DNA from: a phage
Reading direction: 5' to 3' (one strand)
Sequence record: PZ179880.1
Length of the DNA stretch: 64,000 nt
Shown here in pieces: positions 58,510-62,926 of this stretch (position 1 is its first letter; each line of letters starts with the position of its first letter). The notes beneath the pieces were generated by a model. That model had not been told where the DNA came from and did not search any database. It was given only the letters and a program-made list of their open reading frames with translations. Position numbers and translations under genes: made by a program.

Positions 58510-58710
58510 ATGGCACAAAAATTAATGGCACTTGTTAATGCCATCAAAGGTAATAAGAAACGTATAGCTTTTACTATTTCTGCTATGGTAGGAATTTTAC
58601 TCTGGAACTTTATTTTATCACCAATTGCAATTGCGCATGGTGTTAATATTCCAGTAGTTACTCTTGATACATTCGTAGATCTAGCATTTGCTTTAGTTGG
58701 GTTAATTTAA
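58510..58710 (+). CDS. small two-helix membrane protein (66 aa)
   Basis: Plus-strand ORF in a gap with no minus-strand ORF; strong SD AAAGGAGGA 5 nt before ATG; hydrophobic. Confidence 0.4.
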   Translation: MAQKLMALVNAIKGNKKRIAFTISAMVGILLWNFILSPIAIAHGVNIPVVTLDTFVDLAFALVGLI

Positions 58711-59735
58711 ATCTTGGCATATTTAGATAACCGCATTTTAGCCATTAACCCCTGGGCAATATTATTTTTCATATATTCCATAATTTGTTCAGGGGTTGCA
58801 CCTTCCTTTCTAATCATATCATTAACATCTTTTGATTTCCAGGGAGATTTATCCCAAAACATAACCCTTTCTCCTGCATCAACTAATTTAGTCATTCGCT
58901 TGATAGTGTCAGGGTGACGAGGTTCATTATCTAAAACCCACACTCGTCTATCTTTAAATGGAACAACTTCTAGGTCTAATTGACCACCCGTAATAGCTAT
59001 ACCATTTTCAATAAAAAGCGAATCTATAGGTCCTTCTAGAACATATACATCACCATCTTTGACTCGTTCGACTCCATAGATTTTTGTTGCCTCAGGATAA
59101 GCTTTGATGGTGATATATTTTTGAGGAGCATCTTTCTTTAATGCACGTCCTTGAAAAGACTCAGCTTTTCCGTTAGCATTATAAATTGGAATAACAAGAC
59201 GAGGCTCAGGTGTTTCCTTTTTATATGTTCCTGGAGCTATACTATTAACTAATTTAGGCCATTCAGTTGTAAACCAAAGATATTTCCATTTATCCTTTGG
59301 AATACAACGAGCTTTTACATATTTTATAATTGGATGGTCTTCCGCCAATTTATCTAATCTGATGCATGACGGAAGAGATTTAATTATTTTCTTCTCAGGT
59401 TGTTTAGGAAGTTCTTTAGGTTTTTCTACTGGACGACTTTTACCTTTTTCTTTTCTTATTTCAAAGATATACTCACGATATAAATCAGGTTCAAACTCCT
59501 TTAAATATATTCCGATTGGTGCATGATAGTTACAGTTATAACAATGAATATTTCCTTCATTATTATCACCGTAATACCATCCACGGGCTTTATTTTGGTC
59601 GGTTTTTGAATCTCCACAAACAGGGCATCTAAACCTTAATTTAAAAGTTGAACTATTATTTACTTGTGTGAATTTAGGTAAATGAGCTAATGCACGATAT
59701 GCAAACTCATTATCAATCCAAGGTATTGATGACAT
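58707..59735 (-). CDS. 61: DNA primase gp61
   Basis: 342 aa; N-terminal zinc ribbon (CPVCGDS ... CYNCNYH), Toprim-like core. Confidence 0.9.
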   Translation of the reverse strand: MSSIPWIDNEFAYRALAHLPKFTQVNNSSTFKLRFRCPVCGDSKTDQNKARGWYYGDNNEGNIHCYNCNYHAPIGIYLKEFEPDLYREYIFEIRKEKGKSRPVEKPKELPKQPEKKIIKSLPSCIRLDKLAEDHPIIKYVKARCIPKDKWKYLWFTTEWPKLVNSIAPGTYKKETPEPRLVIPIYNANGKAESFQGRALKKDAPQKYITIKAYPEATKIYGVERVKDGDVYVLEGPIDSLFIENGIAITGGQLDLEVVPFKDRRVWVLDNEPRHPDTIKRMTKLVDAGERVMFWDKSPWKSKDVNDMIRKEGATPEQIMEYMKNNIAQGLMAKMRLSKYAKI

Positions 59736-59737
59736 TT

Positions 59738-59902
59738 TTACTCTTCTTTTTCTTTAGATTCCTCTTTTTTCTTTTTAGGAATCTGTTCAGGGCCTTTATT
59801 TACTACAGCACCTGACGTTGTTCCAGTAGAGATATTTTCAGGATTACCACCTGAATCTCCAGCTACCATATCTTCTTTAATAAATTCTTTATATGTTTTC
59901 AT
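59738..59902 (-). CDS. hypothetical small protein with Lys/Glu-rich tail (54 aa)
   Basis: Hand-translated; GAGG SD; fills the 61/61.1 gap. Confidence 0.3.
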   Translation of the reverse strand: MKTYKEFIKEDMVAGDSGGNPENISTGTTSGAVVNKGPEQIPKKKKEESKEKEE

Positions 59903-59903
59903 A

Positions 59904-60260
59904 TTAACCTCTATTCATAAAAGCATTAAAAATTTGGTCATCAATCGATGGAATAGCAATCTTTTCTGCGTCATTTAGCAAATCATTAATTTCATCAGAT
60001 AGCATAACACATGTACCTTTATTTCCTGTAATTGTTACTGCACAATTACGAACGTTTTCTTTATCAAATTTTAGGTTAATATTTTCGTAATGAAAATCCT
60101 TTAATGCCGAATATATTTTTAAAATGAAATTGTCTTTTACTACAATAAAACCGACTTCACTGTTAAAACGCGGCTCATGAAAACTGTAATAAACCTTTTC
60201 ATCTATAAAATCGTATGAAATTTTTTCCATTTTTAAATAAGAAAATTCAGAACTATACAT
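59904..60260 (-). CDS. hypothetical protein (61.1 slot)
   Basis: 118-aa ORF. Confidence 0.45.
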   Translation of the reverse strand: MYSSEFSYLKMEKISYDFIDEKVYYSFHEPRFNSEVGFIVVKDNFILKIYSALKDFHYENINLKFDKENVRNCAVTITGNKGTCVMLSDEINDLLNDAEKIAIPSIDDQIFNAFMNRG

Positions 60261-60272
60261 ATTAACCTCTAA

Positions 60273-60566
60273 TTACTCACCTACCACTTCAGCGATGATA
60301 TTTTTATTATTGAAGTTTTTATCGCAATACAGAACATAATTATACTGCATTACACCACCAGACTTAAGTTGTTTTTGCACTTCAGCTTTCATTTCAGGAC
60401 GATCACGCTCAACGATATTCATAATATCTGCTTCAATCTGAGTTTCAACCTCAGTCTGATCTGCAGTCATAGACCATTCGCACAAATCTTTATCATAACC
60501 TGCCATAGCAGGCTGAGCAGCACAAGAAGCTAAAGCAAAAATTGCAGCAAAAACAAATTTTTTCAT
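60273..60566 (-). CDS. sp: Spackle periplasmic protein (superinfection immunity / lysozyme inhibitor)
   Basis: 97 aa; cleavable signal peptide (ALASCAAQPAMA). Confidence 0.65.
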   Translation of the reverse strand: MKKFVFAAIFALASCAAQPAMAGYDKDLCEWSMTADQTEVETQIEADIMNIVERDRPEMKAEVQKQLKSGGVMQYNYVLYCDKNFNNKNIIAEVVGE

Positions 60567-60626
60567 GATAATCTCCTCAGTAGTTTATGTTTATATAATA
60601 TCTCAATTTTCAATAAAAGTAAACAC

Positions 60627-60929
60627 TTATTTTAAAACTTTTGCATAATCACATGTTACAAACTGTTTCTCTAACTTGACGATTTTACGAAAGTATCTTT
60701 TGCATTGACGAATCTGTCGCTTCGTAGGACGCACAGCAAACTTAATAGATTCCACTCGACCAAATGGAGGACTTTCTTCTGCTGAAATATCTAACACCAA
60801 TTCCCACGTATCCGCAATAAGTGCTTTGAATTGTGTATTTTTCCTGATGTTATACGGAGTAGGTTTAAATAAAACCGTATGCATATTACCCTCGCCAATC
60901 AGATTCAAAAACTTTTTTATCATTAACAA
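60627..60929 (-). CDS. hypothetical basic protein (61.2-61.4 slot; start may be internal MHTVLF)
   Basis: 100-aa ORF overlapping dmd 3' end. Confidence 0.4.
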   Translation of the reverse strand: MLMIKKFLNLIGEGNMHTVLFKPTPYNIRKNTQFKALIADTWELVLDISAEESPPFGRVESIKFAVRPTKRQIRQCKRYFRKIVKLEKQFVTCDYAKVLK

Positions 60930-61068
60930 ATGCTTTAACTAGTGCTTTATTAACTTCAGCATATTGAGTAGTAGCCCATTGAACGTCATCTTTCATCATT
61001 GTGGTCTCTTTAGTAAACATGCTTTCATTCTTAAACCACCCCATAAAAACTACCTTTACCAATTCCAT
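60886..61068 (-). CDS. dmd: Dmd (antitoxin against host RnlA/LsoA RNase toxins)
   Basis: 60 aa; adjacent to gene 41; matches remembered T4 Dmd. Confidence 0.6.
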   Translation of the reverse strand: MELVKVVFMGWFKNESMFTKETTMMKDDVQWATTQYAEVNKALVKAFVNDKKVFESDWRG

Positions 61069-61099
61069 AACAATCTCCTCATTTAACCAACAAGACTAC

Positions 61100-61127
61100 T
61101 ATACCATAGTCTTGTCAGCTTGTAAAC
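61100..61127 (-). promoter_or_regulatory. early promoter with 8-bp inverted repeat across -10
   Basis: GTTTAC; CAAGACTA/TAGTCTTG inverted repeat around TGGTATAG. Confidence 0.45.
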
Positions 61128-62554
61128 TAAAATTTTAATTCATTCGCCAAAGCATCTAACTGAGCTCGAGTGGATTCATTTCTTTGATAGCGATTCTGCT
61201 CAGCTTGTATCTGTTGTGAACCTGCTACCTCACTCACTTCAGTTGGAGTAGAATCTTGTTCAATTTCTACCCATTTCTGATTTCCTTTTTGAACACCCAT
61301 CAAAAACTTATTCCATTTATTCTTATCACCATATCGTGATTTGATTTGCTTAATAAGTTGTTGTTCAGCAGCTGCTAACTCCTCGGTTTCAATGACCGCA
61401 AGCATAAAATCAGCTGTTGCTGGAAGACCGGCAGATTCTGCAATATCGCTCATGTTAACATCAGAAGAATCCCAAGCTTGCTTACCAACCTGTGCTGCGG
61501 TCCAAAGAACAGTTTCGGTTTCAACAGCCAGAGCACGCAATTCCTCTGCGATAGCTTTAACAGTTGTGTAACTATTTTCTGAATACACTCTGATGCGGCA
61601 AGATTTACAAATACCTAGATAGTCGACAATAATGATTGTTGGAACAAAATTCTTCTTGAGTTTCAATTCATTTAAAAGAGATCGAAATGTATTAGCGTCT
61701 GCTCCACCAGTAGGATACTGTTTAACGATTAAACGACCGAGAGTAGATTTCTCACGCCATTTTTCCATTTTTCCTTTATACTCAGCGTAAGAAATATGCC
61801 CATCATCAATGTCATCAAGAGAAACATCAAGCATATTAGCGTCAATACGTTTAGCACAGACTTCTTCTGCCATTTCCATGGAAATGTAAAGAACATTATG
61901 TCCGAGCTGCAAATAATCTGCTGCCAATGAACACAATCCTAATGACTTACCAACGTTAACACCAGCCATTAAAACATTCAGTGTTCCAGTTTCAGCTCCA
62001 CCTTTAGTAATTTTATTTAGAATTTTGAGTTTAAATGGAACCTTACGCGCTTTATTCATATAAGATAGCCAACGTGCTTCATAGTCATCCATCCAATCAT
62101 GACCAACGTAACTATCAAATGAAATTGATAATGCTTGACGCATGATGTCAGGAATAGCACCTACATCTGGCATTTTCTTATTTCGTTTTTCCGGAGGAAG
62201 CTCAGCATTAGTTTGAATTTCAATTATTTTAGATGTGGCATTAAACATCGCCCTTTGCTGAACATATTTTTCTGTTTCTTTTACTAACCAGCTGTGGTCT
62301 TCTGGAGAATCGGCTAGTTTTGAAATAAGTGTTTTTACACCAGAATATTCTGTTTCAGTAAATGAACTATTTTCTAATGCAACATTTAACGCATTAATAG
62401 ATGGAACGCTATGGTACTCATTAACATGAGACTTAATTAATTTGAATGTATTTTTAGCTGGACCACTTTCAAAATATTCTGAATCCATATATGGCCAAAC
62501 TTTTGAAAAATAAGCTTGATCAAATATGAGATGAGAAAGAATAATTTCTACCAC
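61127..62554 (-). CDS. 41: replicative DNA helicase gp41 (DnaB family)
   Basis: 475 aa; Walker A GVNVGKS. Confidence 0.95.
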   Translation of the reverse strand: MVEIILSHLIFDQAYFSKVWPYMDSEYFESGPAKNTFKLIKSHVNEYHSVPSINALNVALENSSFTETEYSGVKTLISKLADSPEDHSWLVKETEKYVQQRAMFNATSKIIEIQTNAELPPEKRNKKMPDVGAIPDIMRQALSISFDSYVGHDWMDDYEARWLSYMNKARKVPFKLKILNKITKGGAETGTLNVLMAGVNVGKSLGLCSLAADYLQLGHNVLYISMEMAEEVCAKRIDANMLDVSLDDIDDGHISYAEYKGKMEKWREKSTLGRLIVKQYPTGGADANTFRSLLNELKLKKNFVPTIIIVDYLGICKSCRIRVYSENSYTTVKAIAEELRALAVETETVLWTAAQVGKQAWDSSDVNMSDIAESAGLPATADFMLAVIETEELAAAEQQLIKQIKSRYGDKNKWNKFLMGVQKGNQKWVEIEQDSTPTEVSEVAGSQQIQAEQNRYQRNESTRAQLDALANELKF

Positions 62555-62563
62555 ACTTACTCC

Positions 62564-62926
62564 TTAAAAGAATTTAAATTTTTTCTTTGACCTTTTATTA
62601 AATGCATCTTGCAGTTGCATTGTAATACATTTTTCTACATGAGGAGCTAACTCAGCTTTTCTTTCTTGGTCAAGAACAGCAAAGTCCATTACGACTTTTC
62701 CATCAACCCAATCTAATTTTGTCACATACACAATGTGTGTAGAACCATCTTCTAGTTTAATGACAATCTCCTGGATAACATTTTCCATAGCAGATTTAAT
62801 TATCTTAAGAGATTCATTAAAAAGACGTTCTTTTCTTTCTTCTTCCCCCTCCGAAGAGGGGGATTCGTCGATAATTTCTAGATCTAAATCTAAATCATCT
62901 TTATTCATTAAATTCTTCCATATCAC
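62564..62926 (-). CDS. 40: gp40 head-assembly accessory protein
   Basis: 120-aa ORF between uvsX and 41. Confidence 0.5.
   Translation of the reverse strand: MIWKNLMNKDDLDLDLEIIDESPSSEGEEERKERLFNESLKIIKSAMENVIQEIVIKLEDGSTHIVYVTKLDWVDGKVVMDFAVLDQERKAELAPHVEKCITMQLQDAFNKRSKKKFKFF

Follow-up and report, generated by a model that had tools for sequence, protein, structure and literature searches.

Gene content and order of the locus

The window analysed here is the whole 64,000-nt stretch of the phage sequence record PZ179880.1. Its part from 58.7 to 64 kb is the gene 61-uvsX stretch of a Tequatrovirus, in which all real genes are carried by the minus strand. A megablast search with positions 59700-61200 matched 510 phage records, every one of them T4-like, the best at 96.1% identity; the closest record across 25 kb has about 95.7-96% identity, i.e. 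the window is approximately 4% diverged from every database record. The genes of this part are:

58707-59735, minus strand: gene 61, primase
59738-59902, minus strand: 61.1, 54 aa (phrog_1823, E 7e-34), at the same position as T4 61.1
59904-60260, minus strand: gene of 118 aa at the 61.2 position, T2-type, distantly homologous only to the C-terminal half of AdfA
60273-60566, minus strand: sp (spackle, '61.3'), periplasmic protein with a signal peptide, identical to T4 Sp at 94 of 97 residues (Pfam T4_Spackle, 152.5 bits)
60627-60884, minus strand: tifA (61.4), 85 aa, by similarity to T4 gp61.4 a basic protein that binds RNA and inhibits the type III toxin ToxN
60886-61068, minus strand: dmd (61.5), 60 aa, by similarity to T4 Dmd an antitoxin-like protein that directly inhibits RnlA and LsoA, two HEPN RNase toxins
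61127-62554, minus strand: gene 41, helicase
62564-62926, minus strand: gene 40
minus strand: uvsX, interrupted by the end of the window

The order 41-dmd-61.4-sp-61.2-61.1-61 is that of the annotated T4 record. An earlier sequence-only reading had stated that the T4 61.2-61.4 interval includes factors acting against DarTG and ToxIN, which agrees with the published work, 61.2 being AdfA (DarTG) and 61.4 being TifA (ToxIN). Its further suggestion, that the interval between sp and gene 41 is depleted in the window or holds a replacement, did not stand. According to the T4 annotation, gene 41 and sp are separated only by dmd and 61.4, '61.3' is another name for sp, and 61.2 is found on its far side; the sole extra ORF of the interval is TifA, 93% identical to that of T4. 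A missing or replaced gene between sp and gene 41 is ruled out by this identical layout. The sp gene flanks the dmd-tifA operon and is not a member of it. The segmental amplification of dmd-tifA known from T4 evolved on toxIN hosts was not found in the window, which carries a single copy, and no Rfam family reached its gathering score across the window.

Just beyond the 3' end of gene 61, an ORF of 66 hydrophobic residues (58510-58710, plus strand) lies on the strand opposite to its neighbours, with a 4-nt overlap between its 3' end and that of gene 61. The ORF has a match in phrog_2024 (E 1.6e-31), and the annotation of phage LH2 lists it as hypothetical.

A relative represented by the Logan contig SRR26820293 (L006:3185-3745) carries an extra gene of 84 aa between tifA and sp, apparently present in RB3-type phages as well, which matches phrog_2980, 'goF mRNA metabolism modulator' (E 3e-20). 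The TifA of this contig is an 80-aa form with a differing C-terminus, ...KQLLMLVK. The gap between tifA and sp is therefore a variable slot of the island, empty in the window and in T4.

Identification of dmd

The ORF at 60886-61068, which the sequence-only reading had assigned to Dmd, is indeed this gene. Its product is identical to T4 Dmd at 54 of 60 residues (90%, BLASTP E 1e-39), matches the Pfam family Dmd (PF17587) over profile positions 1-60 of 60 with 134.8 bits (cut-off 27), and finds phrog_2102 as well as chain B of the solved LsoA-Dmd complex (PDB 5HY3_B, E 6.2e-32). An alignment of 10 diverse Dmd proteins, down to 60% identity, has 26 invariant columns, all of which are retained in the window protein, and the six differences from T4 all fall on columns that vary among natural Dmd proteins. 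The gene is the first one after gene 41, behind a T4-type early promoter. Given its 90% identity to the Dmd of the LsoA-Dmd crystal structure, the protein of the window would be expected to bind and inhibit RnlA and LsoA.

Approximately 500 Tequatrovirus records carry dmd and tifA at 90-99% identity. The best phage match is 93.3% identical to the window Dmd, and the exact Dmd and TifA sequences of the window are both absent from a collection of 15 billion proteins. NCBIfam has no name for either of the two.

Identification and extent of tifA

The 85-aa product of the ORF at 60627-60884 is identical to T4 gp61.4 at 79 of 85 residues (93%, BLASTP E 9e-61), so that in the BLASTP comparison with T4 both ORFs lie far beyond chance. 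It also matches Pfam DUF7279 (PF23945) with 70.8 bits (cut-off 24.5) and phrog_2375 (E 2.7e-36). The neighbour of dmd had been described as small and basic, and the calculated pI of 10.0, with 18 Lys and Arg against 8 Asp and Glu, agrees with that description. The Pro-Thr helix cap (P53-T54) and the basic residues K55, R56 and R59 are kept without exception (five of five). An AF2 model built from a 13-sequence alignment (pLDDT 75.8) predicts strands at residues 2-6, 27-33 and 43-49 and a helix at 55-84, in agreement with the published description of TifA as a three-stranded sheet with a C-terminal helix, which supports the identification. Fold neighbours of the model in BFVD were only TifA-family proteins of T4-like phages, and no solved structure for TifA was found at E <= 1. 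On the strength of its 93% identity to T4 TifA, the window protein may be expected to bind ToxN and RNA and to relieve ToxIN defence.

Two other interpretations of this ORF were considered. It might be a housekeeping gene or a chance ORF unconnected with counter-defence, as its family is still named DUF7279 in Pfam and most records annotate a hypothetical protein. What was found instead is 93% identity to T4 gp61.4, an experimentally shown ToxN inhibitor, together with conservation at the same position in approximately 630 phage records, the best of which matches the window protein at 96.5%. The T4 match and the published inhibition of ToxN rule such an identity out, leaving it a negligible probability. 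The other interpretation concerns the extent of the gene, which had been drawn as 60627-60929. An open frame does exist there on the minus strand, back to a TTG at 60929; as a gene extent it is an over-long reading, of 100 aa from TTG with a 44-nt overlap with the 3' end of dmd, or of 98 aa from an in-frame ATG at 60923. Metagenome gene callers do output versions of 86-98 aa, but neither the TTG nor the ATG at 60923 is preceded by a Shine-Dalgarno sequence, whereas GAGG precedes the ATG at 60884. The extension of 13-15 residues is, moreover, unconserved among gene-caller products (MTRKCAKWIAEDN vs MIKKFLNLIGEGN) and wholly different between T4-type and HY01-type dmd tails, as would be expected of an out-of-frame read through the variable tail of dmd. 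T4 61.4 is annotated as 85 aa, and the functional protein was described with this length (PMC9391042). An N-terminally extended TifA is thus very improbable, and tifA most likely extends over 60627-60884 with an ATG start.

Promoters and operon structure

The following signals were recognised around the two genes:

61098-61126, minus strand: T4-type early (sigma-70) promoter of dmd-tifA; TTTACA, 17 nt, TG-TATAGT
60595-60623, minus strand: promoter-like site between the end of tifA and the start of sp; TTTACT, 17 nt, TATTAT (promoter scan and T4 alignment)
61085-61120, minus strand: 15-bp perfect inverted repeat (hairpin by RNA folding) in the gap from gene 41 to dmd, with the -10 element inside it

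The promoter of dmd was the top promoter-like site of the scan, with 10 of 12 positions matched and an extended TG, and its -35 hexamer adjoins the stop codon of gene 41. The 46 nt upstream of dmd have the same sequence in T4 and LH2, the early promoter being conserved base for base; in T4, an early promoter upstream of dmd drives dmd and 61.4 (eLife 2022, PMC9391042). The same paper mentions a promoter downstream of tifA, where the window has the second site.

The ATG of dmd is preceded by GAGGAG, 6 nt upstream. A single base separates the stop codon of dmd from the ATG of tifA (TAA-T-ATG), with GAGG placed within the last codons of dmd, and this spacing is as in T4.

The hairpin has a folding energy of -20.2 kcal/mol (z -3.7), and none of 200 shuffled sequences folded equally well. 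It is conserved in T4 except for one base immediately 3' of the stem. It lacks a following T-run, and the scan did not call it a terminator; intrinsic terminators were not found anywhere in a scan of 59600-61400. The hairpin could form only in transcripts reading through from gene 41.

Recombination within dmd

The Dmd of the window is a natural recombinant, in which a T4-type body is joined to a C-terminal tail of HY01/RB27 type. Residues 1-47 are T4-type, and the C-terminal 13 residues, VNDKKVFESDWRG, are the same as in the 63-aa Dmd of HY01/RB27 type; the resulting changes relative to T4 include C54F, V56S and C58W. The HY01-type body differs from that of the window by a 3-residue insertion and approximately 25% divergence in residues 1-47. 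At the DNA level, the junction is visible as follows:

60874-60975, minus strand: recombination patch and junction inside dmd (mismatch counts and patch identity)

Upstream of about 60975 the DNA is of T4/LH2/G50 type, and from about 60925 through the 5' end of tifA it is of HY01/RB3 type. Mismatches per 50 nt amount to 0-2 against T4 and 12-22 against HY01 at 61064-60974, and to 11 and then 2 against T4 and 0 against HY01 at 60923-60824, the window DNA being identical to the HY01/RB27/RB3 type from about 60925 into tifA. The 91-nt patch is 97.8% identical to HY01, RB3, RB5 and RB27. The nearest similar chimera (P0016), from one Logan assembly, is 98% identical.

Allele features of TifA

Relative to T4, the TifA of the window carries I3T, V13I, P34S, F46S, E82K and I83V. 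Four of these six changes are shared with HY01, T4_ev240, LH2 or G50, while P34S and F46S occur only in the window among the sequences examined. In the AF2 model, the beta2-beta3 loop, which includes residue 41, begins with P34S. F46S, a single transition, falls in the predicted beta-3. Each of the 12 aligned homologues has F, L, M or I at this position, so that the window lacks a hydrophobic residue there; this hydrophobicity is a conservation observed in the present alignment and not a published defining feature of TifA. An exact search for the 26-mer containing S46 in IMG/VR and the JGI metagenomes did not find it, while the F46 form is present in IMG/VR. Judging from sequence, F46S could weaken the TifA of the window.

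Residue 41 is known to tune the potency of TifA: F41S and F41H strengthen the T4 protein, and RB69 TifA has H41 (PMC9391042, PMC10853763). The RB69 protein, 70 aa long and inhibiting ToxN more potently, has the family, the fold and the basic helix in common with TifA of the window. An RB69-like 70-aa representative (P0116) is 53% identical to the window protein and has H41, whereas the latter has F41, the 'weak' allele of T4, T2 and T6, and the full length of 85 aa. From these two features a modest, T4-like potency would be expected. With F41 retained, the phage is predicted to behave like T4, overcoming a single-copy chromosomal toxIN but being restricted when toxIN is plasmid-borne.

It is possible to read the same genes as functionally retuned alleles, in which the chimeric Dmd and TifA with P34S and F46S would have a toxin specificity or potency changed from that of T4, by adaptive re-assortment instead of neutral drift. 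A recombination junction does lie inside dmd, and both TifA papers argue that homologues are 'tuned' to variants of ToxN, a single change in the loop (F41S or F41H) strongly altering inhibition. In the model, P34S would open the residue-41 loop and F46S would sit in beta-3, and the S46 26-mer occurs in neither IMG/VR nor the JGI metagenomes, although IMG/VR contains the F46 form. Against this, the changes in the Dmd tail are at naturally variable positions and the tail already existed in nature as an allele; drift would be expected to produce private substitutions in DNA approximately 4% diverged from all database records across 25 kb; and F46S might just as well be slightly deleterious or reflect an error of sequencing. 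Functional retuning is, therefore, considered unlikely. A slightly smaller chance still is given to the wider idea that the whole anti-TA island is a set of re-assorted counter-defence alleles, each of which would be matched to its own variant of host toxin. The set would comprise the recombinant Dmd, the TifA in which P34S and F46S lie to either side of the specificity-determining residue 41, and the short AdfA-like protein of T2 type described below. An ordinary T4-like dmd-tifA operon is the preferred interpretation.

The 61.2 position

The 118-aa gene at 59904-60260 is located between sp and 61.1, a position that it shares with T4 and RB69 AdfA (gp61.2, anti-DarT1, 208 aa). Its product matches Pfam AdfA (PF23813) with 33 bits (cut-off 27, E 5.2e-8) over profile positions 113-211 of 211, and is 35% identical to residues 109-208 of T4 gp61.2. 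Approximately 97 C-terminal residues are homologous, with the common ending SIDDQIFNAFMNRG. The full-length AdfA architecture of about 208 aa is not present, the N-terminal half being absent. The protein matches phrog_4122 (E 8.6e-73), is 94.9% identical to T2 gp61.2, and occurs in approximately 300 phage records.

Histidine 164 of AdfA is needed for the binding and neutralisation of DarT1 according to the AdfN preprint, in which T2 was counted as lacking adfA; this histidine presumably corresponds to His165 of T4. BLASTP places Cys73 of the window protein opposite T4 His165, in a register that is uncertain at 35% identity. The T2-type 118-aa protein in place of AdfA is the one real structural departure from T4 in this island, situated outside 60627-61068, and it is possible that it acts as a counter-defence factor with a different target.

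Proposed role of the dmd-tifA operon

The locus is almost certainly the dmd-tifA bicistronic early operon of a T4-like phage (Tequatrovirus), situated between genes 41 and 61 in the 'anti-TA island', and by its similarity to T4 it is likely to act as it does there. The identity and order of the genes, the promoter, the coupling, the retention of functional residues and the fold predicted for TifA are shown here for the window. The operon agrees with T4 dmd-tifA (61.5-61.4) in gene order, in the lengths of 60 and 85 aa, in the promoter, in the one-base spacing and in sequence (90 and 93% identity), and departs from it by six substitutions per protein, including the HY01-type Dmd tail and P34S and F46S of TifA. 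Nothing contradicting the identification as dmd-tifA was found.

In T4, dmd and tifA form a two-gene operon, of which tifA alone relieves ToxIN defence, and the TifA homologues of T2, T4, T6 and RB69 all inhibit ToxN (Srikant et al., eLife 2022, PMC9391042). Together with 61.2 (adfA, anti-DarTG) the region resembles an anti-TA island (PMC9391042). The basic C-terminal helix of TifA, capped by Pro-Thr, binds RNA, and TifA also binds ToxN, resulting in a ribonucleoprotein of high molecular weight that contains ToxN in an inactive state; in the mutants P53A/T54A and K55A/R56A/R59A, RNA is no longer bound and ToxN no longer neutralised (PMC10853763). In the complex with LsoA, Dmd sits in the groove between the N-repeated (TBP2) and HEPN domains, near the catalytic Arg and Glu (PMC8266594).

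With the partners and mechanism carried over from these proteins by 90-93% identity, the following course of events may be proposed. Straight after infection, host RNA polymerase would transcribe dmd-tifA from the T4-type early promoter, and tifA is translationally coupled to dmd, its ATG being one base from the dmd stop codon and its Shine-Dalgarno sequence within dmd. As infection shuts off host expression, the labile antitoxins RnlB and LsoB would disappear. Dmd, made early, would replace them by binding RnlA and LsoA in the N-repeated (TBP2)/HEPN groove, which would stop the degradation of late phage mRNA. TifA would bind RNA by its basic C-terminal helix together with ToxN, forming an inactive ribonucleoprotein trap and leaving phage transcripts uncut.

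Both genes belong to characterised families and occupy their canonical place behind the canonical promoter; the finding as such is thus already known, and only the allele details are new. Its value lies mainly in correct annotation, since the 85-aa 'hypothetical protein' of hundreds of Tequatrovirus records is TifA. The alleles also permit a rough prediction of host range, namely that the phage would be sensitive to plasmid-borne toxIN, like T4. The allele details, i.e. the chimeric Dmd, F41 and S46 of TifA and the T2-type short 61.2, could aid work on how antitoxins are tuned to variants of RnlA, LsoA and ToxN. If the idea of re-assorted alleles were true, new toxin specificity could be gained through recombination within an antitoxin gene of 60 codons.
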